From assembly GCA_934162125.1 (NCBI GenBank), contig CAKPHU010000002.1:195616-259615 (forward strand): a DNA stretch of 64,000 nt. Reading direction: 5' to 3'. Position numbers and translations under genes: made by a program. Each line of letters starts with the position of its first letter. Position 1 is the stretch's first letter. The DNA comes from an uncultured Bacilli bacterium. Lineage in GTDB: Bacteria > Bacillota_I > Bacilli_A > RF39 > UBA660. The notes under the pieces were generated by a model. That model saw only the letters and a program-made list of their open reading frames with translations, did not search any database and was not told where the DNA came from. This document shows, piece by piece, positions 3,145 to 57,111 of this stretch.

Positions 3145-3768
3145 TTATTTTTCTAAAGCTGCAATAATTTCAGCTTTTTTTAATCCAGCAACATCAACTT
3201 TTTTCTTAGCTGCTATTTCTTTTAATTCTGCTACTGTCATTTTAGCATAATCAACTTTTTCTTCTTTTGCTTCTGCTTTCTTTGTTTCTTTTTTAGCAGG
3301 TGCTTTCTTTTCTTCTTTTACTTCTTTCTTTTCAGCTTTAACTGCTTTTTCTTCACGAGCTGCATTTATAGTAACTTCTTTTAAAGCTACTTCTGTACTC
3401 TTAGAAACTTTTCCAGCTTTACCATCTTTAGCAATTTTAACAAATTCACTAAACATCTTAGGATCATTAATTGCTATTTCTGATAACATTTTACGGTTAA
3501 CTTCAACACCAGCTTTATTTAATCCTTCAATAAATCTTGAATAACTAATGTCATTTTGACGACATGCAGCATTGATTCTTGTAATCCATAATTTTCTGAA
3601 ATCTCTCTTTTTTTGCTTTCTATCTCTGAATGCATATTGTCCTGAATGCATTAATTGTTCTTTTGCTGACTTATATAATCTATGTTTACTACCAAAGTAA
3701 CCTTTAGCTTCTTTTAATACTTTTTTATGACGAGCTTTTGTAACTGCTCCATTTTTAACTCTTGCCAT
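3145..3768 (-). CDS. rplT: 50S ribosomal protein L20 with ~90-aa K/E-rich C-terminal extension ending in HeH/Rho_N-like motif
   Basis: [33 protein letters not shown]...[22 protein letters not shown]20 core (~118 aa) followed by [28 protein letters not shown]...[31 protein letters not shown]. Confidence 0.9.
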
Positions 3769-16489: not shown

Positions 16490-16900
16490 CTAATCACCAT
16501 CCTTTATTACTTTAAAAATTTCTCCCAAAGAAATTTGTCTATCCCTTAACACAATCTTAACACTATCACCATCCTTCTTATTTTTAAGACTACAATTAAT
16601 TAAAAGATCATGATAATTACTATCCTCTTCTTTTAATACATTCTTAATAACTTTACTACTCTTCACTTTAATTCTCTTATTGTCCACATAAATATAATTA
16701 CCATTTTTATTATAAATAGTAACATCTCTATCATTAACTATAGCTTCAATAAGTCCCTCATGCTGTACTACTCCATAAATAACATAATAACTATTAATCT
16801 TATAAAATATTGTATATCCTAAAAGAATCAGTCCTAAAATCAAAAATATCAATATAAAAAAGTTTAATCCATAACTCTTCTCATAATTTGTTAACCTCAA
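16490..16900 (-). CDS. small membrane-anchored accessory protein of bacteriocin export (HlyD-like N-terminus only)
   Basis: 136 aa, one N-terminal TM then soluble domain; overlaps ABC gene by 20 nt and its stop is 1 nt before prepeptide 2. Confidence 0.45.
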   Translation of the reverse strand: MRLTNYEKSYGLNFFILIFLILGLILLGYTIFYKINSYYVIYGVVQHEGLIEAIVNDRDVTIYNKNGNYIYVDNKRIKVKSSKVIKNVLKEEDSNYHDLLINCSLKNKKDGDSVKIVLRDRQISLGEIFKVIKDGD

Positions 16901-19233: not shown

Positions 19234-22200
19234 TTATTCCATCACATTAGACTTCTTACGATTTTTTCTACACATAAAGATTATAAAAGCTAATAACAAT
19301 GCATCTACGATAGAAGCTATTATAATAATCAAATTATCATTTGCACCTTCAGTATTTGGCACTGTATTTTCAGTCTTGGTAATTATTATATCTGTATTTA
19401 CTATTCCATCACTATATTCTAATTCTAATTTATGAGTACCTATTTCCAATGTATTTAAATAACTAGATTTTAATGTCAAAATAGTACTTCCATTCTTTAA
19501 TTCATAATTTGAAGAGTTAACCTCAATACCATCTAACTTTACTTTTATTAACTTTTCTAGTTCACCATCAGCTTTAATCACAATATCTTTGCTTGAGTCA
19601 ACTTCATAAGTTTGATTATTGCCACTTAAGATTGTGTATTTAACTCCAGCATCTTTCCATATAATTTTTACTACTGTATCATTATTAAAAGCATAAGTAT
19701 CTTCAATCCATCTCTCATTATTAACCATAATATAATCAAATCTCATATCAGTTGGTGGAGTTATTAATAAAGCAATCTTACTTTCTATATCACTTTTCTT
19801 TAATGAAGACCCCTTATCAATCACAATTGTTTCAAAACCATTATTTTTTCCACCATTAGTATCTATTGTTATTTTTACTTGTTCAATAAATTTTGCATAA
19901 ATACTTATATTTTGTTTAATCGTTGTATTAAAGTCAAACTTTGTTTTGAATGTTTCATCTGTATACCAATCATCAAATCTGTAATTATCCTTTGTAGGAT
20001 TAGGGGCTGGTCTTGATATCTTTTCTCCTGAACTCACATAACCAGAATACAATTCTTTTCCTTCAGACATAAATGTAACTTTATATGAAGCTGCTGGTGA
20101 CAATATTTTCCATTCTATCTTTATTGGATTAGTTGTACCATCAGACCATACATAGTTAGTAGTTGAAGATAAAGTACATATTTGAGTATAAGATTTTACT
20201 TTAGTTCCTTTTAAATCCCCACTACCCTTACTTCCTTCTGGACACTGGATACCACTATCTTGTTCACTACCATTATAGATTCTGTCTCCAATTTTTGTTG
20301 GAATTATTAACTTTTTCTTATTTATAGTAAGTTTTACACAACTACTGCTGGCTTGCTTTGTATTTAGAGTTTCATTAGAAATTGCTTTAACATAATAAGT
20401 TCCGGCATTTACTGGTGCTTCACCACTATTTTTAGCACCTGTTTTGGTAGTTGTCTCCACCGTACATTTATCATTAGTATAATATTTGTAAATTAACACT
20501 ACTCCATTTACATTTACACTTGCCTGATTTGCTTCCATTGCACTTCCCGAATATGTCCCGGTTTTAGCAGTCAATGTAATTTTAGGAGTTGCCTGGACTA
20601 TCTTCCATTTAATTTGTTTATTACCAGAAGATCCATCTGACCATACATACCTGCTAGTATCATTTAATTTCAAAGTTACAATATACTCTCCAGCATTTTG
20701 TGCACTTACCGTACTACTAGAACTAACTATACTTACATTAGCTGGTACAGCAATTCCATGATCCTGCATATTACCTGTATAAGTTTTATTTGTTGGATTA
20801 TCTGGTATTTTAACCTTCTCTTTTGGATCAACTAATTTTAGTTTAATCCATTTTGATATACTACTATTTTCGTCAAGTCCACCAAAATAATCTTTAGTTT
20901 GATTGCTTGTATCAGTTGTATCATTATTTTGAAGCATTGCAAATAATTTCAATTCTTTTGCTGTCAAATTAAAATTATTCTTAGGAATTGTAATAACAGC
21001 TTTAATTCCTCTTGCATTAACATCCGTAGCTGTGAAATTTTGTGAGATATTTACTTTTATTAGATTACTATTCTTAATATCAGTCTCTGTACCATTTTTA
21101 ACTAATTTTACTGTTGCTAAACCACTTGGATTAATTCCAACACGCAAATAATCATATGTCGTACCATTGTATTTTAAATTTGCCGCATTAACCTTAATTT
21201 CCACATAATCCTGACCAGCAACACTATTTTGATCTAGCCAATCAATATAAAAATAAATATTATTTAAATCATAATTTGATCTTATTGACATTTGAGCTTG
21301 TGATGCACTACCTATAAACAAAGCATCATCATTAGTATTTGACAAGACTTCATTTTTTATCTCTAATGTATGATTCAAATACAAATTATGTATTCCAATA
21401 TGATCTCTTTTCTTATTAGGATAATATGATGCAGTAAGTAATGCAAAACTATGTGTTGAAGTTGTCGCAATTGAACCAAATTGAGACCATCTTCCTGCTT
21501 CTTTCATCACATTTGGTTCCGACTTATCAAAATTTCCATTTGAATCTCCAATCATTATAGTTGGATAGTCTCCATTAGAATAATATAAAATCGTTTCACC
21601 TGATGGCATTTGAATAATATATGGTGCTGATCCTGACACAAAATTATTTTTTCTAGTAATTGGGCCAGTTTCTGTTAAACCCAAACCAACATTATCGTAT
21701 ACTTTTGCTTCACCATCAAAGTTAGTGTTTGCCTGATGTTGACTATTAATATCCATCCAATACTTCTGTTTACTAACACCATTAACCCTAACATTAGTTG
21801 CATTTGAATACGCTAATGAAATTTTATTCTTTAATGTAACTGATTCTGTATTTTTAACATTACCAGTAGTACATTGTCCAGAACAATTTTCATCACATTT
21901 TGAAGCGGAATCACAAATTGAAGGATTGTCTTTACAATTAGTGCTTATTGTAAAAGATTCAACAGCCATAACCATTTTCTTCTTATTATTAAGTTCTACT
22001 CCAACTGGCATTTGATCAGTCATTTTAATAATTTTATTATTATAACTTATTCCCTTATGACATTGACAATTTGTTTTTAGATTTGTAAAATCAACTATTT
22101 CAGTTGTATTTTGCCAAACAACTGGCTGTTGAATAATTACATATGGTGAATAAGAATTTCTCTCACTAGAATTATATCTTTTATTAGTTCCAACTATATG

Positions 22201-23124
22201 TGGAGTAAAGCTATTAGCATTATCAAGAGAAGATATCATTCCTACTCCTGATGAATTAAAATGGGGACCATTAACAGCTATATAATTTTTATATTTTTCT
22301 GCAAGGCTAACTCCATTTATATACTCAACAGGCGCAATACACGTAAAATATACTTGTATCTCACCAGTTGACAATTGAGCAATTGATGGTTCCCAAACAT
22401 AGCCTGAATAAATTTGTTTTTCAGTAGACCATGTCTTACCGCCATCAGAACTTATTTTCATATATATTCCAATTTTATTAAAAACTTCTGGAGTATAAAC
22501 CCAAACACTTTTTGGTACTTTTGCCACAACATTCATAATTCTGCCATCTCGTAAAACGATTGAATCAGAACTTGAATAATTATATTTTACAGAATTTTCT
22601 GTATATGATTCGTATAATTTCTTTGGTGTTTCCCAATTTTTTAAATCATTACTTCTAGTATAATAAACATTTATTCCATTAGCACTACTTGTATCAATAT
22701 TTTGAAAAGTTAATAAATACTTATACTCACCATTGGCTATATACTTAAGTCTAGGATAATTCATTAATTCTAAATCACTATTATTTTGATCCAAATTACT
22801 TTTATATAGCATTATTGTTTCCCTAAGATTACCTTCAAATGAACTAACAACAGTATTACTACTTACTATATCATCCTTATTCGAATCTAAAGACTTTTGT
22901 GTTTTATTTAAATTAGATATTTTTTCAATAGGCTGTTTCAAGAAAGTATTATTTGCAAAATCACTCATATCTTTATAATCATAATCAATTGAATAACTTG
23001 TCTTTAAGTTTAAAATAACCGCAAAAATAATCACTGCCAACAGCAAAAAAAGATTTCTCTTATTTAATAATTTTTTCATATTTCTCACCAACAACTTATT
23101 AAAGTAATTTGCACATTTTTTCAA
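19234..23124 (-). CDS. large cell-surface protein: BNR/sialidase-like repeats, Ig-like repeats, Listeria-Bacteroides repeat, C-terminal TM anchor
   Basis: 1296 aa; signal peptide (likely from second Met MKKLLNKRNLFLLLAVIIFAVIL); BNR motif SSDGGKTWS; repeated ...YVWSDGS... Ig-like modules; YRFDDWYTDETFKTKFDF repeat; C-terminal hydrophobic anchor + RKNRKK. Confidence 0.75.
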   Translation of the reverse strand: MKKCANYFNKLLVRNMKKLLNKRNLFLLLAVIIFAVILNLKTSYSIDYDYKDMSDFANNTFLKQPIEKISNLNKTQKSLDSNKDDIVSSNTVVSSFEGNLRETIMLYKSNLDQNNSDLELMNYPRLKYIANGEYKYLLTFQNIDTSSANGINVYYTRSNDLKNWETPKKLYESYTENSVKYNYSSSDSIVLRDGRIMNVVAKVPKSVWVYTPEVFNKIGIYMKISSDGGKTWSTEKQIYSGYVWEPSIAQLSTGEIQVYFTCIAPVEYINGVSLAEKYKNYIAVNGPHFNSSGVGMISSLDNANSFTPHIVGTNKRYNSSERNSYSPYVIIQQPVVWQNTTEIVDFTNLKTNCQCHKGISYNNKIIKMTDQMPVGVELNNKKKMVMAVESFTISTNCKDNPSICDSASKCDENCSGQCTTGNVKNTESVTLKNKISLAYSNATNVRVNGVSKQKYWMDINSQHQANTNFDGEAKVYDNVGLGLTETGPITRKNNFVSGSAPYIIQMPSGETILYYSNGDYPTIMIGDSNGNFDKSEPNVMKEAGRWSQFGSIATTSTHSFALLTASYYPNKKRDHIGIHNLYLNHTLEIKNEVLSNTNDDALFIGSASQAQMSIRSNYDLNNIYFYIDWLDQNSVAGQDYVEIKVNAANLKYNGTTYDYLRVGINPSGLATVKLVKNGTETDIKNSNLIKVNISQNFTATDVNARGIKAVITIPKNNFNLTAKELKLFAMLQNNDTTDTSNQTKDYFGGLDENSSISKWIKLKLVDPKEKVKIPDNPTNKTYTGNMQDHGIAVPANVSIVSSSSTVSAQNAGEYIVTLKLNDTSRYVWSDGSSGNKQIKWKIVQATPKITLTAKTGTYSGSAMEANQASVNVNGVVLIYKYYTNDKCTVETTTKTGAKNSGEAPVNAGTYYVKAISNETLNTKQASSSCVKLTINKKKLIIPTKIGDRIYNGSEQDSGIQCPEGSKGSGDLKGTKVKSYTQICTLSSTTNYVWSDGTTNPIKIEWKILSPAASYKVTFMSEGKELYSGYVSSGEKISRPAPNPTKDNYRFDDWYTDETFKTKFDFNTTIKQNISIYAKFIEQVKITIDTNGGKNNGFETIVIDKGSSLKKSDIESKIALLITPPTDMRFDYIMVNNERWIEDTYAFNNDTVVKIIWKDAGVKYTILSGNNQTYEVDSSKDIVIKADGELEKLIKVKLDGIEVNSSNYELKNGSTILTLKSSYLNTLEIGTHKLELEYSDGIVNTDIIITKTENTVPNTEGANDNLIIIIASIVDALLLAFIIFMCRKNRKKSNVME

Positions 23125-35262: not shown

Positions 35263-36639
35263 TTATCCAATTCTAAAAGCTGGTGAAACACCAATTTTAC
35301 TATTAGCACGTTCGTTATACCAGTTACCCTTATCAGTTACATAACAGAAACGAATATCACCATGAGAATAAACAGCACGGAGCCACCACCATGAACTTGA
35401 ACCATTTAGTTGTTTAATAGCCTTAGAAAAACTATTTGTTGTAACTCCTGTATAATAATCTAACTGTCTAGTGTTATCTCTTGCTGTATCATACTCAATA
35501 ATATTTGATGTTCCTTGTGCCCATATTTCGGCAGTAGACAATAAATACAATTTATCTATTGAAGTAAAATTAGCTGAATCATTACCTCCATGTCCTGATA
35601 CTGCTTTTGTATCTATTATGATACTTTGTAAATTTGATGGTAAAGCATTATAAACATCACTATTTAAGTATGATCTCATAGTAGTTACTGGCCAACCCCC
35701 ATCGCTTGTCTCAATAGAATTCATATTATACTTCGTAATTATATCTGCAAATTCTAATACAAAGCCACAGGCTGTTTGAGAAAAACCTTCTTGACTACAT
35801 TCTGCTGGAGTTGAAGTATTTGCTATTCGTAGTGTATGCTTTCCTAGACTACCCAAGTCAACTTCTTTAGTATCACCAACAGTATATATTCCATTATATG
35901 CACCACTCTTTACAGCTGCCCCTATAGTTGACCAATCATCTTCCGCAAAACTTTTAGGTGTAACCTCTTCTGAACCATTTACTTGTGCAGAACTTGTCTC
36001 ATCTATACATAAGCCAGTTATATTTTTTACAGGTCCTACATTTGTACATTTATAAATTCTAGAATTTCCAGAAGTAACAGCTGAACAATCTAAACTGCCA
36101 TTATCTAACGTTAATTCTACTTTTTTCTTGTCTGTATCTGATATATCTACCTTAACATTACCTCTTTTTAAATCATCAGATGAAATAGTATTATCATCTA
36201 ACACTGCATGAACTCCATCACTTAAACCTACATAAAAAGTAGTCTTTCTTTGCGGTTCACCATTATTATCAATTATTGTCTCAACATGAACTCTTACATA
36301 ACCGTTTACATCTCTATTTCCCCACGAAGACTTCCCACCTTGACCAATTAATTCTGGCAAACTAGATCTAGCAGAATCTTTTGTATTGATCAAAATATAA
36401 TAATCTCCATCATCAACAGCAGTAGCACTCATGCCTTCACAAGTCAAAGAATCAGCTGTCCACAATGCCTTTGCAGCATTTGCATAGGATCTCGCTGTAT
36501 TTACAAAAGAATCTTTTCTAACGTTTTCAATTATTCTACTAACTGCAGGTATCGCAATCATCATTAAGATTCCCATTATAACTATAACTGCCAACAACTC
36601 AACCAAAGTAAACCCTTTTCTATTTTTCATATTATACAC
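35263..36639 (-). CDS. type IV pilin-like protein with prepilin N-terminal cleavage/methylation motif and large C-terminal domain
   Basis: N-terminus KGFTLVELLAVIVIMGILMMIAIPA (class III signal peptide, G-1/F+1/E+5); 458 aa, Cys-containing extracellular domain ending ...SSSWWWLRAVYSHGD...GVSPAFRIG. Confidence 0.8.
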   Translation of the reverse strand: MYNMKNRKGFTLVELLAVIVIMGILMMIAIPAVSRIIENVRKDSFVNTARSYANAAKALWTADSLTCEGMSATAVDDGDYYILINTKDSARSSLPELIGQGGKSSWGNRDVNGYVRVHVETIIDNNGEPQRKTTFYVGLSDGVHAVLDDNTISSDDLKRGNVKVDISDTDKKKVELTLDNGSLDCSAVTSGNSRIYKCTNVGPVKNITGLCIDETSSAQVNGSEEVTPKSFAEDDWSTIGAAVKSGAYNGIYTVGDTKEVDLGSLGKHTLRIANTSTPAECSQEGFSQTACGFVLEFADIITKYNMNSIETSDGGWPVTTMRSYLNSDVYNALPSNLQSIIIDTKAVSGHGGNDSANFTSIDKLYLLSTAEIWAQGTSNIIEYDTARDNTRQLDYYTGVTTNSFSKAIKQLNGSSSWWWLRAVYSHGDIRFCYVTDKGNWYNERANSKIGVSPAFRIG

Positions 36640-37747: not shown

Positions 37748-39601
37748 TTAATTATTTAAATTACCACCCAAAGTAATAAATGGATTAACCATACTTGGAG
37801 CCTCTTGTTTTACTGGTGGTCTATATGTTTCTATCTCTTTATACCATACAGTACTAATATCAACATTATTACTTAATGGTTCTGGATCAGGTTTCTCTAC
37901 ATAAAGAGAAACTGGTACTTTAAAAGCATTACCAAAAGCCATACAGTTACCTGGTTTCAAACTCTTCAATTGTTGAACTATCTCTGCTGAAATGTTTGGT
38001 ACCATATTTCTAATATAATCTAAATCATTTGGATGTAGTGTACGTAAAATTATAAAATTAGTACATTGTGAAACACAAGTATCAGATAGTTCACTAGGAC
38101 GTTGTGTAATAAGTCCTAAGAAAATACCATATTTACGTCCCTCTTTTGCAATTCTCTCAAATATATTATATCCAAGTAAATCCATATCTCTGTCTTTAAC
38201 AACATATCTATGAGCCTCTTCAATAATAACATGGAATGCTCTACTACCACGAGGAGTAATACTTGATGCTACATCAAATAACATTCTTGAAATAATCTTT
38301 GTAATTACCTTAGCCATTCTATCATCAACATAATTAATATTAAAATTAACTATTTGACACTTAGAACCATCTGCTTTTCTAAGTAAAGATTCAACATAAT
38401 CTCTCTTACCACAGAAACCATCATAAGTAAAATATTCTTTATAAGGACTATTAACTAAAGTATGTAATCTTACACTTAAAATGTTAGCGTAATCAAATAC
38501 TTTTTCACTCTTTAAAATACCTTCATTAATAAGTGCAAAATCCATAGCTAACTCTAAATCAGAAAGACTATAATATGGATTTAAATCTTCTGTAGCAATT
38601 GCTGCGTCTGTTTCCATTATAAATCCTCTTATAAATTCTACTACAAGTTCCATCTCTTGCATCTTACCAGTTTTATCTATATATAAACATTGTTTTAAAG
38701 TTCTAACATATCCAGGTTGAACAATCTGACTTTCTAGATGTAACTCTGGTGTATTAAATTTTGTAAGAACTGCTGTTACTTGATCTCGTATCTTAGTTGA
38801 ATCATTACCACTAAGTAAAATGTCTTGAACAGCTCTAGCAATTATATCATTTTTTCTTTTAACTACATTATCACTAGTACCGGTAAGTATAGGTACTAAA
38901 CTTAAAGTCTTCTCAATAATTGGTAACTGAGTAGGATTAGTTGCATCTAACAATAAAGCTAAGTCATCAACATCTAAAAGCCATACTGGTATATGTACTA
39001 AATTAGCTCTATCTTCAGTATTAGTAGTTAAATATTTATAATTAAGTTGTGGATTATATTGATGAAGATTCTGGAAAGCATTATTGTACTCTCCAAAAGC
39101 ATCAAAGAAAAAGAAATTAGCATTTATTGGAGCTTTTGGATTCATAAATAGTTTTTGTACAATAGAAGCAACTGTACAACTTTTACCAGCTCCACTATTT
39201 CCTAATACTGAGAAATGATTACTAAAGAAATCATTAATATTAACATTAATTCTATATCCATCATAGATGTTACTAACACCAATATTAGTTTCCCCATCAT
39301 CAACATTTTGACTACCTAACATTAATTCAAGTTCTTCTAATGTTACAAGTCTAATATTAGCTCTAAAAGAAGGTCTCTTTGCAGAACCAGGTACAAATGA
39401 ATCTTTTGTAACTTCTCCAACGACAACAACTAGCATTTCTATTTGATTAACACTAACAATTTCTCCTACTATTCTCTTATCTGCATCTTCAAAAACAACA
39501 TGAAGTCCAACTAGATTAGGCTGTTTATTGATGTCAATTGCAAGTTTTATTTTCACATGGTTATCGATAATTTCAATGACACTACCTATCATTCTATCCA
39601 C
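37748..39601 (-). CDS. HerA/FtsK-like P-loop ATPase (DUF87-type)
   Basis: N-terminal beta-barrel-like MIGSVIEIIDNHVKIKL...VVVVGEV, Walker A VLGNSGAGKSCT, HVIIEEAHRY (HerA EEAH-type Walker B/sensor); 617 aa. Confidence 0.65.
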   Translation of the reverse strand: MDRMIGSVIEIIDNHVKIKLAIDINKQPNLVGLHVVFEDADKRIVGEIVSVNQIEMLVVVVGEVTKDSFVPGSAKRPSFRANIRLVTLEELELMLGSQNVDDGETNIGVSNIYDGYRINVNINDFFSNHFSVLGNSGAGKSCTVASIVQKLFMNPKAPINANFFFFDAFGEYNNAFQNLHQYNPQLNYKYLTTNTEDRANLVHIPVWLLDVDDLALLLDATNPTQLPIIEKTLSLVPILTGTSDNVVKRKNDIIARAVQDILLSGNDSTKIRDQVTAVLTKFNTPELHLESQIVQPGYVRTLKQCLYIDKTGKMQEMELVVEFIRGFIMETDAAIATEDLNPYYSLSDLELAMDFALINEGILKSEKVFDYANILSVRLHTLVNSPYKEYFTYDGFCGKRDYVESLLRKADGSKCQIVNFNINYVDDRMAKVITKIISRMLFDVASSITPRGSRAFHVIIEEAHRYVVKDRDMDLLGYNIFERIAKEGRKYGIFLGLITQRPSELSDTCVSQCTNFIILRTLHPNDLDYIRNMVPNISAEIVQQLKSLKPGNCMAFGNAFKVPVSLYVEKPDPEPLSNNVDISTVWYKEIETYRPPVKQEAPSMVNPFITLGGNLNN

Positions 39602-44429: not shown

Positions 44430-45031
44430 TTATTTTCCCCCCTAAGTCTATTAATCACAATAATAATCACAATAGCCAAACTATATCCCGCTAGAACATC
44501 AGTTGGATAATGTACACCTACATATATTCTACTAATTCCAATAGATAGTATCAAAATACCTACTAATGTCGCTAAAGTATATTTTAAATACTTATTCTTA
44601 ATATTGCAAATAATTAAATATAAAATAACTCCATAGACACAAATTGAAATCATCGCATGTCCACTTGGAAATGAAAAGCCCTTCTCTATCACTAATCTCA
44701 AATGTTCAGGTCTACTTCTTCTAACTAATTGCTTAATAATTGTATTAAATCCAATAGAGGCAACAGCTGAAGAAAGAACATAAATAATATCTTTATTTCT
44801 TAAAATGAGACATGTCACAATAACTACTATAACTACCGTGATTGGATCTCCAAGTCTAGTAATAAAAGTAAAATAATTATCTAAGAATGTACAACGACTC
44901 TTCATAATAAAATTATAAATAGCTTCATCAATTACTAAGTTCTTATCTAAAAGCACGACTCCAAACACAAGAAAGAAAATAATTAAAAGTACACTACATA
45001 TAATTATTTCTTTTTTCTTAAATTGTTTCAT
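44411..45031 (-). CDS. PAP2-family lipid phosphatase
   Basis: KxxxxxxRP, PSGH, SRxxxxxHxxxD motifs (RRSRP...SFPSGHAM...RIYVGVHYPTDV). Confidence 0.85.
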   Translation of the reverse strand: MKQFKKKEIIICSVLLIIFFLVFGVVLLDKNLVIDEAIYNFIMKSRCTFLDNYFTFITRLGDPITVVIVVIVTCLILRNKDIIYVLSSAVASIGFNTIIKQLVRRSRPEHLRLVIEKGFSFPSGHAMISICVYGVILYLIICNIKNKYLKYTLATLVGILILSIGISRIYVGVHYPTDVLAGYSLAIVIIIVINRLRGENKCIRWL

Positions 45032-46229
45032 CTTCCAACTCCTGCATCTTTTCTTTTAAAATTTTCTTATATATTTCTACCCCTGGTTGATTAAATGGTT
45101 CTACTTCAAATAAATAACCCGAATATGCAGCACTAAGCATCATAAATGCTGATAACTCTCCCATATTTTCTTCATTAACTTTATCTAATATTATTGTGGT
45201 TGCTGGCACCGAATTTAAAACATGTGCTTCTTTAACTGATTCTAATACTAAATTATTAATATCATTCAATTTACAATTTTTATATTTAACTTCACTCGTC
45301 TCTAAAATCTTTATAAAAGTCTCAAATATAATTGGATTACCCTCTTGAACAAATTGACCTAAAGAATGTAAATCTCTTGTCCCAATCATTGAAACTGGAA
45401 AAATACCCTTTTTATTTTTACCCTCTGTTTCTCCAAATAATTGTTTTAACCATTCCAAGTAATAACTGAAATTTTCTTGATAAACACTAAAACTTTCAAT
45501 ATATTTACCTTCATCAAATAAATATCTACGTAAAGCTGCATAATAATAAGCTTCATCAACTAAATTAAGTCCTAATTCATAACCAGAAACTAATTTATCT
45601 ATATCTAAGTTAAATGACAATGGTAATAAATGAGCAGCCGTCATTAATGAATATCTGCCTCCAATATCTCTAGGTATTTCAAAAGTTCTATATCCATTAT
45701 TAAGTGCTTCTTGAAGTAAACTACCCTTTTCTTTATCTGTTGTAATAATAGTTCTCTCTCCTATTTCTTCACTACTATACTTTTTCTTCATAAACTCTTT
45801 CATCAAAGAATAAGTTATCATTATTTCCGTTGTTTCTCCACTCTTACTAATAACGTCTATATAAAAATCTTTATCTTCTAAATACTTAAAAGTATCTAAA
45901 ATAGTTTCACTATCTAAACCATTACCTAAATAAATAACTTCAGTATCACCTTTAGCGTACTTTTTACTGAATATTTGATTTAAAGCATAACTGCCTAGAA
46001 AAGATCCCCCGATCCCAATCACAACTAAGACACTAGCTCTACTTTTAATTTCATCTCTAACTTTTAATATTTCTTCTATTAAAGTCTGAGAAATTTCTCT
46101 CATCCATCCTGTCATCGTACTCTTACTTAACTCTTCAAGTACTAACTTCTTTTTACTTAAATACTTACTACTTAAAGTATCCGCATCAACTAGATTCTTG
46201 GTATATTTATCAAATTCAAATCCAATCAT
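45018..46229 (-). CDS. pgi: glucose-6-phosphate isomerase (short bacterial form)
   Basis: SIS-type GIGGSFLGSYAL and FNQPGVE motifs; 403 aa (shorter than Bacillus pgi). Confidence 0.55.
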   Translation of the reverse strand: MIGFEFDKYTKNLVDADTLSSKYLSKKKLVLEELSKSTMTGWMREISQTLIEEILKVRDEIKSRASVLVVIGIGGSFLGSYALNQIFSKKYAKGDTEVIYLGNGLDSETILDTFKYLEDKDFYIDVISKSGETTEIMITYSLMKEFMKKKYSSEEIGERTIITTDKEKGSLLQEALNNGYRTFEIPRDIGGRYSLMTAAHLLPLSFNLDIDKLVSGYELGLNLVDEAYYYAALRRYLFDEGKYIESFSVYQENFSYYLEWLKQLFGETEGKNKKGIFPVSMIGTRDLHSLGQFVQEGNPIIFETFIKILETSEVKYKNCKLNDINNLVLESVKEAHVLNSVPATTIILDKVNEENMGELSAFMMLSAAYSGYLFEVEPFNQPGVEIYKKILKEKMQELEDETI

Positions 46230-46297
46230 TATATCACCTTCTATTTAATTATAACAGAAAATTACTCTTTCTGATCCAAAAAAGGAAATAGCCTAAA

Positions 46298-49200
46298 CTA
46301 TTTCCTATAAATAACCACATCATGCTTCTTCTTATCATTTACTAATTTAATTTTACTTACACTCGTACCATCAACTAATATTTTATCAGTTTTATCTTTT
46401 TTAACTTCTATATCATAAGTTGTATCTAAATACTTATAAGTAATATTAAATTTCTTAAATTTATCCAAAACACAAGGTTCAATATTTAAAATACTGCCTT
46501 CTTTTTTAATACCTAATAAATCTCTAATTCCTACATTATAGAACCAACCAGCAGAACCTGTATACCATGTCCAACCACCTCTACCAGCCATATTAGTTGC
46601 TGAATAAATATCGGCTGCAATAACATAAGGTTCTACTTTATATTCTTCTATATTATTCTTAGTAACTGGATTAATCATTTGATAGTAACGATAAGCTTCA
46701 TCATATTTCTTTTCTTTTATTAAAGCCATAATATACCAGCTAACTGCATGAGTATATTGTCCACCATTTTCTCTAATTCCTTTAGAATAATTCATAATAT
46801 AACCAGGATTATTTAAAGACTTACTGAAAGGTGGTGTTAAAAGCTTTACTAAACCATGTTCTTCATCCACTAAGTTATCTGAAACACTATTCAAAACTTC
46901 ATCTTTCTTCTCTTCTGGACAAACTCCACTGATAAGGGCAAAACTTTGTGAAATAAGATCAATCTTACACTCTGTATTGTCATGACTACCAAGTCGATCC
47001 CCATTATCAAAATAAGCTCTTAAATAATATTTGTCATCCCAACCATACTTATTAAGATTATCTTTTAATTTACTATTAAACTTTTCTAATTTACTAATAT
47101 CATAAGAAGAATCAAACTTCTCTATAACTGGTATAAACATCTCAATAATATTGTAAAGGAAGAATCCTAGCCAAACACTCTCGCCCTTACCTTTAATACC
47201 AACTCTGTTCATACCATCATTCCAGTCACCTCCACCCATTAAAGGTAAATGATGACTTCCTAAAGAATTAATACTTAAATTAAGTGCTTTTTCTAAATGT
47301 TTAAACAAACTATCTTTTTCACTAGTATATTCAAAGTTTACAGTCTTTTCATTTTCATAATCTCCAAGAATTGGTGCATTAATATAAGGTACTTCTTCAC
47401 TTAAGATAGCCACATCACCAGTAACTTCAATATACATAATAGTTGCATACACTAGCCATAAATAATCATCTTTATATCTACTTCTAAGTCCAAAATGATT
47501 ATCTTCATGCCACCAGTGTAATACATCTCCCTCTATAAACTGATGACTTGCATTTCTTAATATCTGATCATGTGTCACACTTGGATCTACTAAAACTATA
47601 TTCATGGCATCTTGTAATTGATCACGATAACCATAAGCACCACTTACTTGATAAAAACCTGCTTTCGCAAATAGTCTTGAAGAAATAGTTTGATATAAGT
47701 ACCAACCATTTAAAACATAATCAAGTGCCACATCTGGGGTCTTAACCTTCACAACAGATAATTTCTCTTTCCAAGTTGAAACTACGTCTTTAAACTCTCT
47801 CTTGACACTCTCAACATTACGATATTTTTTAAGAAGCATTTCTAAATAATCATTATCTCTAGAAGCTCCCAACATAAATACCATTTCTTTTTCTTCTAAA
47901 GGTTCAAGTTCAACTTTCGTACTAATACTCTTTGAAAGAATACGATCAACAGATGAATCTGTAAGTTTCATACTAGATGCCATACATACTACAACATCAC
48001 TATAATTGATACTATAAACATTACGTAACTTAACATAATCATCTCTATCTATATATTCTGTCAAAATATGTCTAGCTGTCTTCTCCTCAAAATTACCAAG
48101 AACAGGATTAATATAGTATGAAACATCTAAAGCTATTTTCTTCTTTGTTTTATTTGTAAGTTTAACTAAATATAACTTAACTGTATCTTCTACCGCTACA
48201 AACTCACAAATCTCTTTCTTAACTTCACTAGTTTCAGACTCTAAAATACTATATCCAAAACCATGTCTACACTTATCAGCTACAAAAGTTCTATTATCAA
48301 ATTTAAATCCTTCACTCTGATCATTAACCACAATATCATTAGTCCATGATGTAATCTTAAATTCTCCTGAATTATAAGCAAATGTATAACCACAACCATT
48401 ATTAGTCACAATAGTACCAAAATTCTTATTACTTATTACATTACTCCAAGGAGTTGGTGTATTTCTATTATAAATAAGGTATTCTTCCCCATCTTTAACA
48501 AAACCACCATAACCATTATCAAATACAATTTTTTCTTTAATTTTACTTTCTACATTTCTTTCGTATAAAGCTTCTTCATAATTACTAATTTTATTATGTT
48601 CTTGCAAGTCAGAGATAGCACTTTCCAAAGTCATATGATCTTTAATAATAAATTTAAGTCTAGGAACTACATTAAATAAAATTCTCTCTTCACTAGATAA
48701 ACTATTACCATCAATTACTTTTATCATTCCAGGCGTATGATAGAAATTATTTAATGAATACATTCTATATATTTCATCATCTATTTCTTTATTAATAATC
48801 TTAGCGTATTTATCTTTCTCATCATTAATAATTACTATATCTACAAAGATAGAATTATTTTTATAGTACTCAAAAGTTTTTAAAATACTAAAGACAAATG
48901 GTAAATCACTAATATCACTAATATCAACTAAAATAATTGGTCTGTCTCCACTAACTCCAAATTTCCATAAAGCATTCTGTCCCAACGCATTTTGTCTTAA
49001 AATCTCATTTCTCTCTTCACTAACTGAAATCTTTGTAGTTTGATACAAATAGTTAAGCATAATATTATAAAGTCGCATATCACTACCCGTAATAGAAAGC
49101 ATCTTTGTATTCACAATATTATTAAGTGTCGCTACTTTAAAAGCATTATCTATTTTCTTCTTATCGTTATAGCTTTCAATTATATCATTTATTTGTTCTC

Positions 49201-52200
49201 TACTACGTCCAAATCCCGCAATATAATAAACTGTTGTTGAACTATTTGGTCCAATTAAAATCTTATTTCTAATACTCATTACTGGATCTAAGTTATCACC
49301 CACATAATTAGTTAATTTATTATCTAACATAACTGGGTCATTAACAGTTCTACCTCTACCTACGAAATTATATCTTTCTGTTTCATAAGAATAATCTTCT
49401 AGTGGATCTTCAATTAATAGTCTATTAAACATATAACTATTAACTGCCGCATCCCCTCTACTTCTTCTCTTCATAATTAAAGAATTACTCTTCTTATCAA
49501 ACTCACTAGTAATAAACATACTATTAAATACTCTATGACTAACATCATCCATATTAGGAGAAAGTATTACTTCTGTATAAGTAGTAAGTTCTAAACTCTT
49601 TACTTCATCACTATTATTTCTAAATGTAACCTTTCTAATCTCTCCGTGATGAGAACTCATTACAATAATCTCTGTCTTAGTAGTTATTACTCCATCTTTT
49701 CTAATGTACTTAATATTATCTGAAGCAAAAACAACTTCGTAATTATCGCACTTCTTATTAACAGGTGCATAAGTATTAGACCAAACATAATCAGTATCTA
49801 AATCCTTAATATACATAAACATACCATAGTCTTGTTCTGTTACTTTACGATATCTATTTAATTGAAGAGTTCTATATCTTGAGAAACTATCTCCTCTATC
49901 ATTCATAAGTAAAGCATATTTTCTATTAGATAGAACTGATACTTCTGGCATATAAGAAATATAGTTAAAGTATCTGATATCGTTTTCTATTCCTTCTTTA
50001 GCATAATTATATTTCTTATAATCAGCCATCTTCATATCAATATCTGCTTTTACTTGAACTTTTTCTTTTAATAAAATGTCATAAGTCTTAATATTAACGT
50101 TATGATGGAAATAGTTCTTAATAGCTCCATCTTTTAAATAATTTGTAAGTCCCGCTAATATCATTCCTTGATGATGTGAAAAGAATGCTTCCACAACACC
50201 TTTATTATCATAGTCATAAGCTTCATATAGACCATATTTTCCAGTCATGTCTAGTTCTCTAAACTTTAATATATTCTTATAAACATCCCTTGGAAATAAC
50301 TCCATTACCATAAGTGAAGCATAAGGAGCTAAAACTATTCTATTATCACTAGACTCTTTTGCCTTTAAGTATGGTGTCGCAAAAGCTCTATATTTATAGT
50401 TTAATGAATTATCAAGTTCATTATAAGCTGACTCACTAATTCCCCATGGCAACTTTCTAGAAACCCCTGCCACATAGTCTTTTTGACAGAAATATGAAAA
50501 TTTATAAGACTCATCCAACAATGTATTTGGATAATTCTTCATAAATAAAAGTGGCATATAATATTCAAAAGCTGTTCCAGACCAAGAAATAAGTCCTTTT
50601 CTTCCCTTATAAGTTGTTAAAGACTTATCAAGAGAAAACCAGTGTTTACTAGAAACATCTCCTAAACAAATAGCTAAATAACTAGTAAGTCTAGATTCAC
50701 TCGCAAACTTATTATAGTTATAAATAGAAAGTTTCCCTTCATTATCATCATACCCTATACTAAAGACATGTTTCTTAGTATATAGCTTTCTAAAATTAGT
50801 ATTCTTAATCAATTTATCACATAACTTAACTAGCTTCTCATCACCCAATTTATATAAGAATTCTCTTACTACAATCAAAGAACTAACAAAGTTACCAGAG
50901 TCAACTGTTGAAACAAACCTTGGATTTATTACTTTACCAGTCTTAATAGAATACCAGTTATATAAATGACCATGCCATTTTTCTAATTTAGAAACACTAT
51001 CTAAAACCTTCTCTATAAGTTCAAGTGCTTCATCTTTTTTAATAAACTCTAATTCATAAGCACTAACTATACTTACAAGTGAAAAACCTATCGCTGTTGG
51101 AGAAGTCCTCATATCTAGTTTTTCTTCCCTATTTTCCTGATAATTATCAGGAATTAAATAGAAATATTCTGCACGTAAATTATCTTTAAAGTATAACCAT
51201 GTCTCATAAGCTAATTTCTTAACGTCTTCATCTTCATCTTCTTTTAAATCTACTCTCTCATCTGGAATAGTTAAACTAACATAATATAAGATAAAAGGAG
51301 CTGAAATAAATACTAATGCAATTATAAAAGCAACTACTTCTTTAAAAATAATACCTAAAATAATGAAGACAACACTAACCCCAATATTAAAATAGAAATT
51401 CTTAATGTAAGTAATTAAATCACTTTTCAAAGTCTTTTCTGCATCTTCTGCTGTTACCCAATTAAGTAAATTCTTATGACTAACAGTAAGTCTATAAATA
51501 GTTCTAAAGAAAGCGTCTAAATATAGTTTTGTATAAAATGGAATTGTCGCTAAAGTAATATAACACTTCAAAATAAGACTTCTTCCACCAAAAACTAAGT
51601 TCTTATAATAAACCGTCTTACTATGTGATTCTTCTTTAATTAATTTATTCTTCAAAAAGAAGATAACTGGTATCGCAATCGCTAAAACAACAAATCCAAC
51701 CCACCACCAAGCATTAACTTTTGGACAACAAACTGCTAAAAGTAATACCACCAAAAGTAATGGTTGATAAAATATTCTCACAATATTGTCCAATATTTTA
51801 AACTTACCCAAAATATTAATTGGATTCTTAATTAGATCTCCTTTTTTATTTCTAACTCTATTTCCTAACCAGGAAATAATCTGTGTATCTCCTCTAGCCC
51901 AACGATGATGTCTAGAAGTATCAGTTAAAAACTTTGCAGGGAAATCATCAACTAATTCAATATCTGATACATAACCACAACGTAAATAATTTCCTTCTAA
52001 TAAATCATGTGAAAGTATTAAATTATCTGGAAATACTCCATCTAATATCTGATCAAATACTTTTAAATCATAAATACCCTTACCTACAAAACTTCCTTCT
52101 AAAAAAGTATCTTGATATACATCAGGTATCAAAGCGGAATAAGTATCAAATCCTCCTATACCTGCAAATATTTGACTATATAAACTCTTATTAGTTGCTT

Positions 52201-53935
52201 CAATGTCCACACTAACTCTAGGTTGCATAATTCCATATCCACTAATAACCTTAGTACCCTCTTTATTTAAAACAGGTCTATTTAATGGATGTGCCATTGC
52301 CCCTATTAAGTTTAATGCTGTATTTAAAACTAATTTAGTATCACTATCTAAAGTAATAACATACTTAATATCTAAATTATGATGATGAAGAGTATTCACA
52401 TTAAACCATTTTTTCTCCTCACTATCACTCATCTCTTTAAGTAATATTTTATTAAATTGTAATAAAGCTCCTCTTTTTCTTTCATAACCTAAGTAAGAAC
52501 TTTCTTTATCATTCCACTTTCTTTTTCGATAAACAAAATAGAACAAATCTTTACCATACTTCTTATTTAATTCTGTAGAGACCTTTTCCCCATACTCACT
52601 AATCTCTTTATCATAATCTTCTACTTCCTTATCACTAGCTTTAACATCCCCTAGTAACGTAAAATATAAGTTATCTGATTTATTCATTAAATAAAACGTC
52701 TCTAAAGTTGAAAACATTGTCTTAATCTTTTCTTTAGAAGAAACAATTGTTGGTATTACAACCATAGTAGCACTCTCATCTGGAATACCCTTTGTATAAT
52801 TAAGTTTAGGTAGTGGATTAGTTGCTACAACCTTTATAAGTAACCTATTAATTAACTGAATAAATAATTGACTAACTGGTATTAATAAAATTAAAAATCC
52901 CAATACTCTAAATTTAATAAAGTATTTAGAAAGGTAAAAACAAGTAATAAAAGTTAAAAGTACTAAACTTAAAATATAAAGAACAACTCTTAAACTTGTA
53001 TTCTTCTTTTTAAATAAACTAAACCCAATATGATAATCGTCATCTACATTTTTATCTATAATTGAAAGTAAATATAAATATTCATTCATCTTATGCTTCT
53101 TAGCTAATTTCGCAACTTGCTTACGATATAAATACTTAGACTCTACTGTCATTTGTTTATATATTTTATCTTCTAAAAGAAGCTTTTCTGTACTAGAAGT
53201 CTTCTCTAAAAGTTCTTCATCACTAAATTCAAAGAATTCTTTTAAATCTTGAAAAATATTAGATATCAGTAAATTACTATCTATTTTCTTTTGATGTTCT
53301 TCGTTAATAACATCTTTTAAACTGATCTGTTTTTCTTTAAGCATTTCATTTATTTCTTTAAACAAGCCATTACTCTTAGTACCTAAATTCTTTAATTGAT
53401 TATTAAGTTCAAAGACATAATAATGATCTAAATTATTTAAGTCTTTATCATTAAAGAAAGTACTTATAGAAACATTCTCATTATCTTTTACTTCACCAAT
53501 TAACTTACTAATTTTCTTATTAATATTTAATTTACTCATCTCTTCTATACAAAGACTATGTAATTTTTCTGTATAAATAAATAATAATAAATTTTTAATA
53601 GACGCAATCTGATCATATGTAAAGTACATATTATTATCTTTTTGATATTTCTTTATCTCTGAAGAAAGCATCTTAAAATCAATATTAAAATTATTATGTA
53701 GAGCTAACTCTTTTAAACAGTAATAAATATCTATTGTATTATATAATCTCTTATTAATAATCTTTTTATCATGAATAATATTTACTTTATGTTCTACTAA
53801 TAAATAAAAATTATCAATAATCCACTCATTGGTAATTCCTACATATTCTTGTTTCTTAGTCATATCAACAAGTAAATTATAGTAATTATTTATATAGTTA
53901 AAATCTTTTAAAAATTTAGTTATTAATCTATTCAT
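46298..53935 (-). CDS. giant membrane glycosyltransferase + GH94 protein resembling cyclic beta-1,2-glucan synthase (NdvB/Cgs)
   Basis: 2545 aa; ~300-aa N-terminal soluble part, multiple TM helices flanking a processive GT domain (LDSDT, RHHRWARGD = QxxRW), then GH94-like domains (…GGQYTHAVSWYIMAL…). Confidence 0.7.
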   Translation of the reverse strand: MNRLITKFLKDFNYINNYYNLLVDMTKKQEYVGITNEWIIDNFYLLVEHKVNIIHDKKIINKRLYNTIDIYYCLKELALHNNFNIDFKMLSSEIKKYQKDNNMYFTYDQIASIKNLLLFIYTEKLHSLCIEEMSKLNINKKISKLIGEVKDNENVSISTFFNDKDLNNLDHYYVFELNNQLKNLGTKSNGLFKEINEMLKEKQISLKDVINEEHQKKIDSNLLISNIFQDLKEFFEFSDEELLEKTSSTEKLLLEDKIYKQMTVESKYLYRKQVAKLAKKHKMNEYLYLLSIIDKNVDDDYHIGFSLFKKKNTSLRVVLYILSLVLLTFITCFYLSKYFIKFRVLGFLILLIPVSQLFIQLINRLLIKVVATNPLPKLNYTKGIPDESATMVVIPTIVSSKEKIKTMFSTLETFYLMNKSDNLYFTLLGDVKASDKEVEDYDKEISEYGEKVSTELNKKYGKDLFYFVYRKRKWNDKESSYLGYERKRGALLQFNKILLKEMSDSEEKKWFNVNTLHHHNLDIKYVITLDSDTKLVLNTALNLIGAMAHPLNRPVLNKEGTKVISGYGIMQPRVSVDIEATNKSLYSQIFAGIGGFDTYSALIPDVYQDTFLEGSFVGKGIYDLKVFDQILDGVFPDNLILSHDLLEGNYLRCGYVSDIELVDDFPAKFLTDTSRHHRWARGDTQIISWLGNRVRNKKGDLIKNPINILGKFKILDNIVRIFYQPLLLVVLLLAVCCPKVNAWWWVGFVVLAIAIPVIFFLKNKLIKEESHSKTVYYKNLVFGGRSLILKCYITLATIPFYTKLYLDAFFRTIYRLTVSHKNLLNWVTAEDAEKTLKSDLITYIKNFYFNIGVSVVFIILGIIFKEVVAFIIALVFISAPFILYYVSLTIPDERVDLKEDEDEDVKKLAYETWLYFKDNLRAEYFYLIPDNYQENREEKLDMRTSPTAIGFSLVSIVSAYELEFIKKDEALELIEKVLDSVSKLEKWHGHLYNWYSIKTGKVINPRFVSTVDSGNFVSSLIVVREFLYKLGDEKLVKLCDKLIKNTNFRKLYTKKHVFSIGYDDNEGKLSIYNYNKFASESRLTSYLAICLGDVSSKHWFSLDKSLTTYKGRKGLISWSGTAFEYYMPLLFMKNYPNTLLDESYKFSYFCQKDYVAGVSRKLPWGISESAYNELDNSLNYKYRAFATPYLKAKESSDNRIVLAPYASLMVMELFPRDVYKNILKFRELDMTGKYGLYEAYDYDNKGVVEAFFSHHQGMILAGLTNYLKDGAIKNYFHHNVNIKTYDILLKEKVQVKADIDMKMADYKKYNYAKEGIENDIRYFNYISYMPEVSVLSNRKYALLMNDRGDSFSRYRTLQLNRYRKVTEQDYGMFMYIKDLDTDYVWSNTYAPVNKKCDNYEVVFASDNIKYIRKDGVITTKTEIIVMSSHHGEIRKVTFRNNSDEVKSLELTTYTEVILSPNMDDVSHRVFNSMFITSEFDKKSNSLIMKRRSRGDAAVNSYMFNRLLIEDPLEDYSYETERYNFVGRGRTVNDPVMLDNKLTNYVGDNLDPVMSIRNKILIGPNSSTTVYYIAGFGRSREQINDIIESYNDKKKIDNAFKVATLNNIVNTKMLSITGSDMRLYNIMLNYLYQTTKISVSEERNEILRQNALGQNALWKFGVSGDRPIILVDISDISDLPFVFSILKTFEYYKNNSIFVDIVIINDEKDKYAKIINKEIDDEIYRMYSLNNFYHTPGMIKVIDGNSLSSEERILFNVVPRLKFIIKDHMTLESAISDLQEHNKISNYEEALYERNVESKIKEKIVFDNGYGGFVKDGEEYLIYNRNTPTPWSNVISNKNFGTIVTNNGCGYTFAYNSGEFKITSWTNDIVVNDQSEGFKFDNRTFVADKCRHGFGYSILESETSEVKKEICEFVAVEDTVKLYLVKLTNKTKKKIALDVSYYINPVLGNFEEKTARHILTEYIDRDDYVKLRNVYSINYSDVVVCMASSMKLTDSSVDRILSKSISTKVELEPLEEKEMVFMLGASRDNDYLEMLLKKYRNVESVKREFKDVVSTWKEKLSVVKVKTPDVALDYVLNGWYLYQTISSRLFAKAGFYQVSGAYGYRDQLQDAMNIVLVDPSVTHDQILRNASHQFIEGDVLHWWHEDNHFGLRSRYKDDYLWLVYATIMYIEVTGDVAILSEEVPYINAPILGDYENEKTVNFEYTSEKDSLFKHLEKALNLSINSLGSHHLPLMGGGDWNDGMNRVGIKGKGESVWLGFFLYNIIEMFIPVIEKFDSSYDISKLEKFNSKLKDNLNKYGWDDKYYLRAYFDNGDRLGSHDNTECKIDLISQSFALISGVCPEEKKDEVLNSVSDNLVDEEHGLVKLLTPPFSKSLNNPGYIMNYSKGIRENGGQYTHAVSWYIMALIKEKKYDEAYRYYQMINPVTKNNIEEYKVEPYVIAADIYSATNMAGRGGWTWYTGSAGWFYNVGIRDLLGIKKEGSILNIEPCVLDKFKKFNITYKYLDTTYDIEVKKDKTDKILVDGTSVSKIKLVNDKKKHDVVIYRK

Positions 53936-54020
53936 CTTATCAACTCTCCGATAATTTTATTATAACATAAGAATTTATAAAAAATAAAAAAAGTTCTATC
54001 ACTAGAACTTCATTTATCAA

Positions 54021-54111
54021 TGGCGGAGTAGGAGAGATTTGAACTCTCGCGCCAGTTGCCCGACCTACACCCTTAGCAGGGGCGCCTCTTCAGCCTCTTG
54101 AGTACTACTCC
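54021..54111 (-). tRNA. tRNA-Ser (anticodon GCT), long variable arm
   Basis: GGAGTAG...CCCCTGCTAAGGG...variable stem...GGTTCAAATCTC...CTACTCC-G-CCA; 91 nt; TTGACA-17-TAATAT promoter at 54134-54162. Confidence 0.85.
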
Positions 54112-54202
54112 AGAATATGCATCCGCATATATAATATTACATAAGGTCATCTAAAATGTCAAGAAAAAAATAAAAAACTCCTCTACCGGAGTTAACTTCA
54201 AA

Positions 54203-54279
54203 TGGTGACGAGTATGGAATTCGAATCCATGAATGCTGCCGTGAAAGGGCAGTGTGTTAAGCCACTTCACCAACTCGCC
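54203..54279 (-). tRNA. tRNA-Glu (anticodon TTC)
   Basis: GGCGAGT...CTGCC-CTTTCAC-GGCAG...TTCGAATTC...ACTCGTC-A-CCA. Confidence 0.8.
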
Positions 54280-54282
54280 AGA

Positions 54283-54359
54283 TGGCGCCCCAACTAGGAC
54301 TTGAACCTAGGACCCCTTGATTAACAGTCAAGTGCTCTAACCGACTGAGCTATTGAGGC
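54283..54359 (-). tRNA. tRNA-Asn (anticodon GTT)
   Basis: GCCTCAATAGCTCAGTCGGTTAGAGC...ACTGTTAATCA...GGTTCAAGTCC...GGGGCGCCA. Confidence 0.85.
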
Positions 54360-54366
54360 ATATTAA

Positions 54367-54443
<77 letters not shown>

Positions 54444-57023: not shown

Positions 57024-57099
57024 TGGACTGTTAGCTCAGTTGGTAGAGCAACTGACTCTTAATCAGTGGGTCTAGGGTTCGAATCCCTAACAGTCCACC
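57024..57099 (+). tRNA. tRNA-Lys (anticodon CTT)
   Basis: GGACTGT/TAGCTCAGTTGGTAGAGC/AACTGA-CTCTTAA-TCAGT/.../GGTTCGAATCC/ACAGTCC-A-CCA; the only clear plus-strand gene in the window. Confidence 0.85.
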
Positions 57100-57111
57100 A
57101 TTTAGGTATAT

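Follow-up and report, generated by a model that had tools for sequence, protein, structure and literature searches.

What would a cyclic β-1,2-glucan synthase do in a gut bacterium that has no periplasm? This question is raised by a single gene, called cgs below, which occupies positions 46298-53935 (minus strand) of a 64,000-nucleotide stretch of DNA from an uncultured Bacilli bacterium (contig CAKPHU010000002.1); the whole stretch is referred to as the window. In Proteobacteria (such as Brucella, Agrobacterium and rhizobia), cyclic β-1,2-glucans are known to protect against osmotic stress in the periplasm and to take part in interactions with the host. The family of their synthases (Cgs) has been studied in depth: cryo-EM structures appeared in 2024, and GH189 was defined on a Bacillota enzyme. 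From the full-length match of its product to the Cgs protein of Agrobacterium tumefaciens, we propose that cgs very probably encodes a cyclic β-1,2-glucan synthase of the NdvB/ChvB/Cgs type, which would operate by the mechanism of its A. tumefaciens homologue. The first-pass annotation of the window had recognised the domain logic of these enzymes, and this central claim holds.

The gene is, as that annotation had stated, a single open reading frame (ORF), unbroken from ATG to stop over 2545 codons, the chance origin of which is excluded because stop codons are frequent in the ~28% G+C DNA around it. The three motifs quoted at the outset are all found in the protein (LDSDT at residues 529-533, RHHRWARGD at 675-683 and GGQYTHA at 2391-2397), and the label "low-GC Firmicute" fits both the base composition of the window (24-34% G+C) and the closest genomes, which are metagenome-assembled genomes (MAGs) of uncultured gut Bacilli. 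The protein matches A. tumefaciens Cgs (8rf0/8rf9) at 1263 bits over its full length (residues 36-2512), in four colinear stretches scoring 18.8, 403, 383 and 452 bits; identities are given per aligned stretch, the A. tumefaciens and Thermoanaerobacter italicus sequences being absent among the retrieved representatives. Next in rank come 8wy1 (the T. italicus cyclization domain), then the cellobiose and chitobiose phosphorylases of GH94. The modules follow one another in one polypeptide as the Cgs family requires, namely the N-terminal domain (NTD), transmembrane (TM) helices, GT84, further TM helices, the cyclase and the GH94 phosphorylase. Pfam covers the C-terminal two thirds only, with the GH94 catalytic domain PF17167 (residues 2055-2475, 357 bits), the GH94 supersandwich PF06165 (best stretch 1329-1574, 278 bits) and a "Glycoamylase" domain (1079-1279, 68 bits), and the NCBIfam scan of the 2545-residue protein returned no family at E ≤ 0.01. 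The glycosyltransferase core and the GH94 domains described initially were both recovered, while a third catalytic module, the GH189 cyclase at residues ~893-1302, had been missed. A GH94 region devoid of catalytic residues, or a glycosyltransferase core of another family, would have spoken against the assignment; the catalytic aspartate of GH94 and its partner aspartate are both present, and the core is the GT84 of Cgs at 403 bits, with no other Pfam glycosyltransferase at E ≤ 0.01.

The following lines of evidence, taken module by module (all on the minus strand), support the proposal. First, the GT84 glycosyltransferase (residues 370-715; 51791..52828) corresponds to the 403-bit stretch aligned with 8rf0. 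In the numbering of A. tumefaciens Cgs, with residue roles taken from PMC10901819, the UDP-coordinating aspartates are found at D430 (D527) and in the D530-x-D532 motif (D624/D626), the catalytic base at D644 (D739) and the RW motif at R678/W679 (R773/W774), and R486 and R681 are the counterparts of R586 and R776. Y599, in GGFDTYSAL, aligns to Y694, in RGIDPYVFT, the primer tyrosine of the IF1-homology loop; being both aligned and invariant, Y599 is the predicted primer tyrosine.

Second, residues 893-1302 (50030..51259) form a GH189 cyclization (transglycosylase) domain, as judged from its matches to T. italicus 8wy1 (331 bits) and A. tumefaciens Cgs (237 bits) and from an AlphaFold model. 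Using the residue roles of PMC10834661 and a mapping checked on the sequence, we found that E1080 corresponds to the acid/base E1356 of T. italicus (E1300 of A. tumefaciens), E1168 to the nucleophile E1442, E1124 to E1400, and H1254/H1255 to H1536/H1537, E1400 and the histidine pair being the pKa-tuning neighbours of the catalytic residues (PMC10834661). In addition, S1009/D1012 correspond to A. tumefaciens S1101/D1104. The best match of the AlphaFold model in the PDB is 8wy1 (TM-score 0.77, E = 2e-19), followed by 8rf9 and then by GH144 β-1,2-glucanases; together with the nucleophile and acid/base glutamates, E1124 and H1254/H1255, this GH144-like fold, modelled with moderate confidence, places the domain in GH189. 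By analogy with the characterised enzymes, it is predicted to be the module that makes the product cyclic.

Third, the phosphorylase module comprises the first GH94 supersandwich subdomain (GP1; residues 1303-1640; 49016..50029), which is matched by PF06165 and colinear with A. tumefaciens Cgs, a Rossmann-fold-like subdomain (residues about 1641-1800; 48536..49015), and the GH94 phosphorylase itself (GP2 and the GP3 catalytic barrel; residues 1801-2545; 46301..48535), which matches A. tumefaciens Cgs and PF17167. The last scores 427 bits against A. tumefaciens Cgs 2350-2770, versus ~159 bits against cellobiose phosphorylases. It also retains H2396, the conserved histidine of GGQYTHA, a residue predicted to lie in the phosphate site of GH94 enzymes. 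D2105 (in GYRD) corresponds to the partner aspartate D2393 of A. tumefaciens, and D2240 (in GGGDWND) to the catalytic acid D2528, the two aspartates having been mutated to inactivate the A. tumefaciens phosphorylase (PMC10901819). The presence of the Rossmann-like subdomain is established by flanking alignments (residues 1542-1719 to A. tumefaciens 1774-1949, and 1804-1830 to about 2045-2074), which bracket it at A. tumefaciens 1847-2012 (limits from PMC10901819).

Fourth, the N-terminal ~300 residues, initially regarded as a domain of unknown function, are the Cgs scaffold domain (NTD; residues 1-310; 53006..53935). The match of the single sequence to A. tumefaciens Cgs is weak (18.8 bits), and a profile built from 24 NTDs of the clade aligns with residues 62-355 of that protein at E = 6e-15. 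In the A. tumefaciens enzyme this domain cradles the tyrosine-linked glucan primer (PMC10901819). It is followed by TM1 and TM2 (residues 311-369; 52829..53005), with hydropathy peaks at 317-339 and 344-367 and an alignment to A. tumefaciens Cgs from residue 415 onward. TM3-TM6 and their intervening cytoplasmic loop (residues 716-892; 51260..51790), colinear with A. tumefaciens Cgs, show peaks at 718-736, 743-761 and 855-873. The last of these peaks falls within a long hydrophobic stretch (~846-890), which we read as two helices, so that the hydropathy gives six helices arranged 2+2+2, in pairs between soluble domains, which is the Cgs pattern. As the protein has no N-terminal hydrophobic signal or signal peptide, all its soluble domains should be cytoplasmic.

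Fifth, the functional residues are under purifying conservation. We aligned the protein with homologues translated from the loci of 75 other species, which are 48-67% identical to it. All 19 mapped functional residues (18 of them named in the A. tumefaciens or T. italicus structure papers, the remaining one being the GGQYTHA histidine) are present in the window protein and invariant across the alignment, and the mean identity is 68% in GT84, 71% in the cyclase and 65% in the GH94 barrel, versus 48% in the NTD. Since these residues are invariant at such divergence and the catalytic modules are the best conserved, the enzyme appears to be in use rather than a relic.

By homology with A. tumefaciens Cgs, from which we infer the substrate, the cyclic nature and size of the product, and its destination, we propose the following mechanism. 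All soluble domains would be cytoplasmic and anchored by the six membrane helices. The GT84 domain would use UDP-glucose to glucosylate Tyr599 on the IF1-homology loop, thereby generating a covalent β-1,2-glucan primer held by the NTD, and the same domain would elongate the chain. On reaching the Rossmann-like/GH94 surface, the chain could be trimmed with phosphate by the phosphorylase (acid D2240), which would release glucose-1-phosphate and set the chain length. Finally, the GH189 domain (nucleophile E1168, acid/base E1080) would transglycosylate the chain onto itself, and this cyclisation would release a ring of roughly 17-25 glucoses and regenerate the primer.

Several observations weigh against this proposal. 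No exporter of the ChvA/NdvA/Cgt type was found in the 64-kb window, where the sole ABC exporter (16881-18965, minus strand) belongs to the C39 bacteriocin type, its score against the chvA model TIGR01192 being 127 bits, far below the cutoff of 585. Similarly, a motif scan of 82 loci, covering 1.6 Mb of cgs flanks, detected only three unrelated and non-recurrent ABC ATPase ORFs, so that the dedicated ABC exporter expected of a cyclic-glucan system is missing from both the window and the cgs flanks. In the papers searched, no cyclic β-1,2-glucan is reported for a bacterium that lacks an outer membrane. Confidence in the cyclase model is moderate (predicted TM-score 0.77; mean pLDDT 66.5), with model residues 160-310 poorly predicted. 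Lastly, the cyclase lacks a four-helix insert (about 120-155 residues) that both characterised enzymes possess: A. tumefaciens residues 1116-1263, or T. italicus chain residues 149-305, are represented here by 0-20 residues.

These points lend themselves to an alternative explanation, namely that the architecture of Cgs serves another output, the compact cyclase not cyclising and the enzyme making linear β-1,2-glucan or oligosaccharides, or mainly degrading imported β-1,2-glucans by phosphorolysis and transglycosylation. It draws on the missing insert and the lack of a linked exporter, and also on the fact that GH94 enzymes are reversible phosphorylases, one of which is reportedly used catabolically by Gram-positives such as Listeria (PMC3960220). 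We nevertheless regard it as unlikely, for the following reasons. The T. italicus catalytic and pKa-tuning residues (E1356, E1442, E1400 and H1536/H1537) are all conserved, and invariant in the clade. The GT84 site, like the primer tyrosine, is also intact and does not vary, whereas a purely catabolic enzyme would need neither. All domains are predicted to be cytoplasmic and no uptake genes are adjacent to cgs. As to the four-helix insert, in A. tumefaciens Cgs it forms a back-to-back dimer and is assigned to this dimer contact, not to catalysis (PMC10901819). Furthermore, when the insert was scored by how far apart the VDSGN and ASExR motifs lie in the best 150 representatives of the family, the spacing was short (67-100 residues) in 42 of the 124 that could be scored and long (130-296 residues) in the other 82; full-length proteins measured 2390-2762 residues in the former group and 2408-2990 in the latter. 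As about a third of the scorable representatives are short, the compact form defines a subfamily and is not peculiar to the window gene. It is a common trait that gives no ground for exclusion from GH189, and for the same reason we rejected the missing insert as a defining novelty of cgs. A naturally insert-less cyclase could help to dissect the role of the dimerisation motif.

Could the gene instead be a recent arrival, part of a genomic island that integrated beside a tRNA cluster? Two facts favour a recent arrival: Cgs enzymes are best known from Proteobacteria, and four tRNA genes lie immediately upstream of cgs on the same strand, as the first-pass annotation had noticed. ARAGORN placed tRNA-Ile(GAT) at 54367-54443, tRNA-Asn(GTT) at 54283-54359, tRNA-Glu(TTC) at 54203-54279 and tRNA-Ser(GCT) at 54021-54111, the whole cluster spanning 54021..54443 and the 3' end of tRNA-Ser lying 85 nt before the ATG of cgs. 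The cluster did not turn out to be the integration landmark that it was taken for. First, in the compositional comparison with flanking genes that had been suggested at the outset, G+C content (0.274), third-position G+C (GC3, 0.173) and codon usage of cgs were indistinguishable from those of its neighbours, and its codon usage was the most typical in the window (smallest distance from the window average among the 37 genes tested). Second, no integrase, transposase or repeat-bounded structure is annotated nearby. Third, gene order is conserved: the succession Mur ligase, Ddl, (P-type ATPase), tRNA-Ile-Asn-Glu-Ser, cgs, glucose-6-phosphate isomerase (PGI), PAP2, HAD, RluA, GH3 (NagZ-like) and AsnRS recurs in relatives with 59-67% Cgs identity. 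Of the 18 relatives scanned, 11 have the four tRNAs in the same order ahead of cgs, and these make up all but two of the loci with 59-67% identity in that set; the five scanned loci with 48-52% identity have no tRNAs there, but their cgs is still next to PGI. Fourth, Cgs has diverged in step with its housekeeping neighbours (identities to relatives of 59-67% for Cgs, 61-73% for Mur ligase, 60-82% for Ddl and 67-82% for AsnRS). This native composition, conserved synteny and parallel divergence show an old arrangement that has been inherited vertically, in which the tRNA cluster is a conserved neighbour of cgs and no scar of integration; we therefore rejected horizontal transfer via the tRNA site, a reading so improbable on composition and synteny that we consider it effectively refuted.

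An even less credible idea is that cgs is a decaying relic without current function, for although a lifestyle without periplasm differs from that of known Cgs hosts, the 7.6-kb ORF is uninterrupted, near-identical copies (98-100%) occur on many contigs, and the functional residues and catalytic domains are preserved as described above.

Directly downstream of cgs lies the PGI gene (45018..46229, minus strand), identified by NCBIfam PRK14097 at 342 bits, which is below the curated cutoff of 443. PGI follows cgs in 60 of the 82 loci and is the most constant neighbour of cgs in the clade, the group with 48-52% identity included. This position fits a supply of glucose phosphate, yet PGI is simply a housekeeping enzyme too. 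The cgs-PGI junction measures 68 bp in the window and is variable in relatives, where it holds 0.7-5.7 kb of cargo encoding McrBC with EVE-AAA, YibE/F, metallo-β-lactamase-fold, 1010-residue pilin-like and 723-residue sigma-70-like proteins (for example L017:8988-12489, L015:18808-21898, L033:17797-20829 and L076:8869-11040). These cargo genes were considered as partners of cgs and rejected, none being in the window and none being obviously related to glucans. In 22 relatives, the gene directly downstream of cgs encodes a conserved soluble protein of ~155 residues with no Pfam match (52-78% mutual identity), which begins with KDKYIIVE[VI]IPT...G.IAQISALKLDG (L015:18378-18842, L054:17696-18187) and is missing from the window; it was set aside as a partner on the same grounds.

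The signals around cgs suggest that it is transcribed alone. The tRNA-Ser gene is followed by a hairpin and a T-run; the interval from tRNA-Ser to the ATG (53936..53985, minus strand) holds, by sequence reading, a putative promoter of its own (extended -10 TGTTATAAT) and a ribosome-binding site GGAGAG; and a terminator-like hairpin (46283..46306, minus strand; a 10-bp stem, then TTTTTT) overlaps the stop codon. The promoter scan found a weak consensus match at 53981-53954, of a kind no more frequent in this AT-rich DNA than expected by chance (57 sites versus 61.6). A further tRNA gene, tRNA-Lys, lies at 57025-57100 on the plus strand. Across the window the strand bias is extreme: among the 57 ORFs with 100 codons or more, all but four (53) are on the minus strand. 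GC skew stays strongly negative from end to end (-0.2 to -0.5), and the window is accordingly placed on one replichore.

What kind of host carries cgs, and where could its glucan go? Of the 80 best matches in GTDB species genomes, nearly all are uncultured MAGs of gut origin (human, rumen, chicken, rabbit, mouse and Hadza samples); they carry the labels Bacilli, Erysipelotrichaceae, Mollicutes/Tenericutes, Candidatus Onthousia or Candidatus Faecimonas, the last two being placed in "Bacilli incertae sedis" by the NCBI taxonomy. Its gene content marks the window as an ordinary stretch of the core chromosome, with genes for housekeeping (EF-Ts, S2, L20, IF3, Era, RecO, YbeY, IleRS and AsnRS), for the wall and division (Mur ligase, Ddl, SepF and DivIVA) and for sporulation (SpoIIIAH-like, GerM and YqfD). 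From the latter two sets, the host is walled and probably forms spores, with neither outer membrane nor periplasm. Two of the ribosomal proteins are unusual in that both bear a small helical nucleic-acid-binding extension of the same kind: S2 (319 residues; 2099-3058, minus strand) ends in a Rho_N-like tail (285-319, E = 8e-10), and L20 (207 residues where ~118 are usual; 3145-3768, minus strand) in a SAP/Rho_N-like tail (173-206). The C39 exporter gene adjoins the gene for a 1296-residue surface-type protein (19234-23124, minus strand) with Listeria-Bacteroides repeat, BNR-like and CBM_X2 domains. Elsewhere in the window, a type IV pilin-like protein with an N-terminal methylation motif and DUF6273 (35263-36639, minus strand) is encoded near a HerA/DUF87 ATPase (37748-39601, minus strand), the latter being syntenic with the cgs region in several relatives.

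The family to which cgs belongs is large. When residues 310-1310 were used to search 1.84 billion cluster representatives, 9979 relatives were found at E ≤ 0.001, 3179 of them at E ≤ 1e-30. In GTDB species genomes, tblastn confirmed 394 matches, the best 80 of which are 48-67% identical to the window protein, and many metagenome contigs in ENA and Logan, up to 790 kb long, carry proteins that are identical to it or share 98-100% of its residues. Public annotations call these proteins "hypothetical protein" or "glucoamylase family protein" (entries P0020, P0078 and P0271), the label "cyclic beta-1,2-glucan synthetase" being given by JGI only. With no NCBIfam match either, this amounts to an annotation gap. 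GT84 already figures in the carbohydrate-active enzyme (CAZyme) tables of Firmicutes genomes and of one rumen metatranscriptome, and our literature search on Cgs physiology in Gram-positive or gut bacteria returned only such table entries and the T. italicus domain study.

A broad lineage of Gram-positive gut commensals carries, as a stable core gene, a complete synthase in which every mapped catalytic residue is preserved, the clade of Bacilli with cgs being found in the guts of humans, ruminants, chickens, rabbits and mice. Because the host has no periplasm, the fate and role of the glucan cannot be the textbook periplasmic ones. We tentatively suggest that this widespread uncultured clade makes cyclic β-1,2-glucan without periplasm or classical linked exporter, in a role unlike the proteobacterial one, a possibility for which we would claim no great likelihood. 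If it is true, the glucan could serve in the cytoplasm as an osmolyte or reserve, to be set free when cells lyse or sporulate, or it could be secreted and act on the host or the community. Gut Bacteroides carry GH144 loci, and a source of β-1,2-glucan within the gut might, speculatively, explain them; a recent review does not discuss such a source. If the enzyme is active, the clade becomes a candidate source of gut β-1,2-glucan, which bears on possible immune effects of this glucan.

How does the system compare with those already known? The closest is A. tumefaciens Cgs, which shares with the window protein the module order (NTD, TM1-2, GT84, TM3-6, cyclase, and GH94 with its Rossmann-like insert), the UDP-binding, catalytic-base and RW residues, the primer tyrosine, the cyclase acids and the phosphorylase acid. 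It differs in length (~2830 residues, the window protein being ~290 shorter), in an NTD that is ~80 residues longer and in carrying the four-helix dimerisation insert of the cyclase. The settings differ too: the chvB/chvA, ndvB/ndvA and cgs/cgt systems pair the synthase with an ABC exporter to the periplasm, whereas cgs sits in a walled Bacillota host without periplasm, with no chvA/ndvA-type exporter adjacent or otherwise linked to it. The cyclization domain of T. italicus CGS (TiCGSCy, 8wy1), also from a member of the Bacillota, is the best match of residues 893-1302 in both sequence and fold, with the E1356/E1442 pair and its E1400 and H1536/H1537 environment conserved; unlike the window protein, it carries the insert (~155 residues, chain residues 149-305). 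It is the founding member of GH189, characterised as an isolated domain and not as a whole enzyme (PMC10834661). The GH144 endo-β-1,2-glucanases (Chitinophaga pinensis SGL, 5gzh) resemble the cyclase model in fold (TM-scores of 0.65-0.70), but the equivalent of their Asp139 is here a serine (S1009), as in the GH189 residue set. The stand-alone GH94 phosphorylases (cellobiose and 1,2-β-oligoglucan) align with the catalytic barrel, the catalytic aspartate being conserved. Both these GH144 and GH94 enzymes are single-function, soluble and degradative, whereas the window protein joins both folds to a membrane GT84 in one chain.

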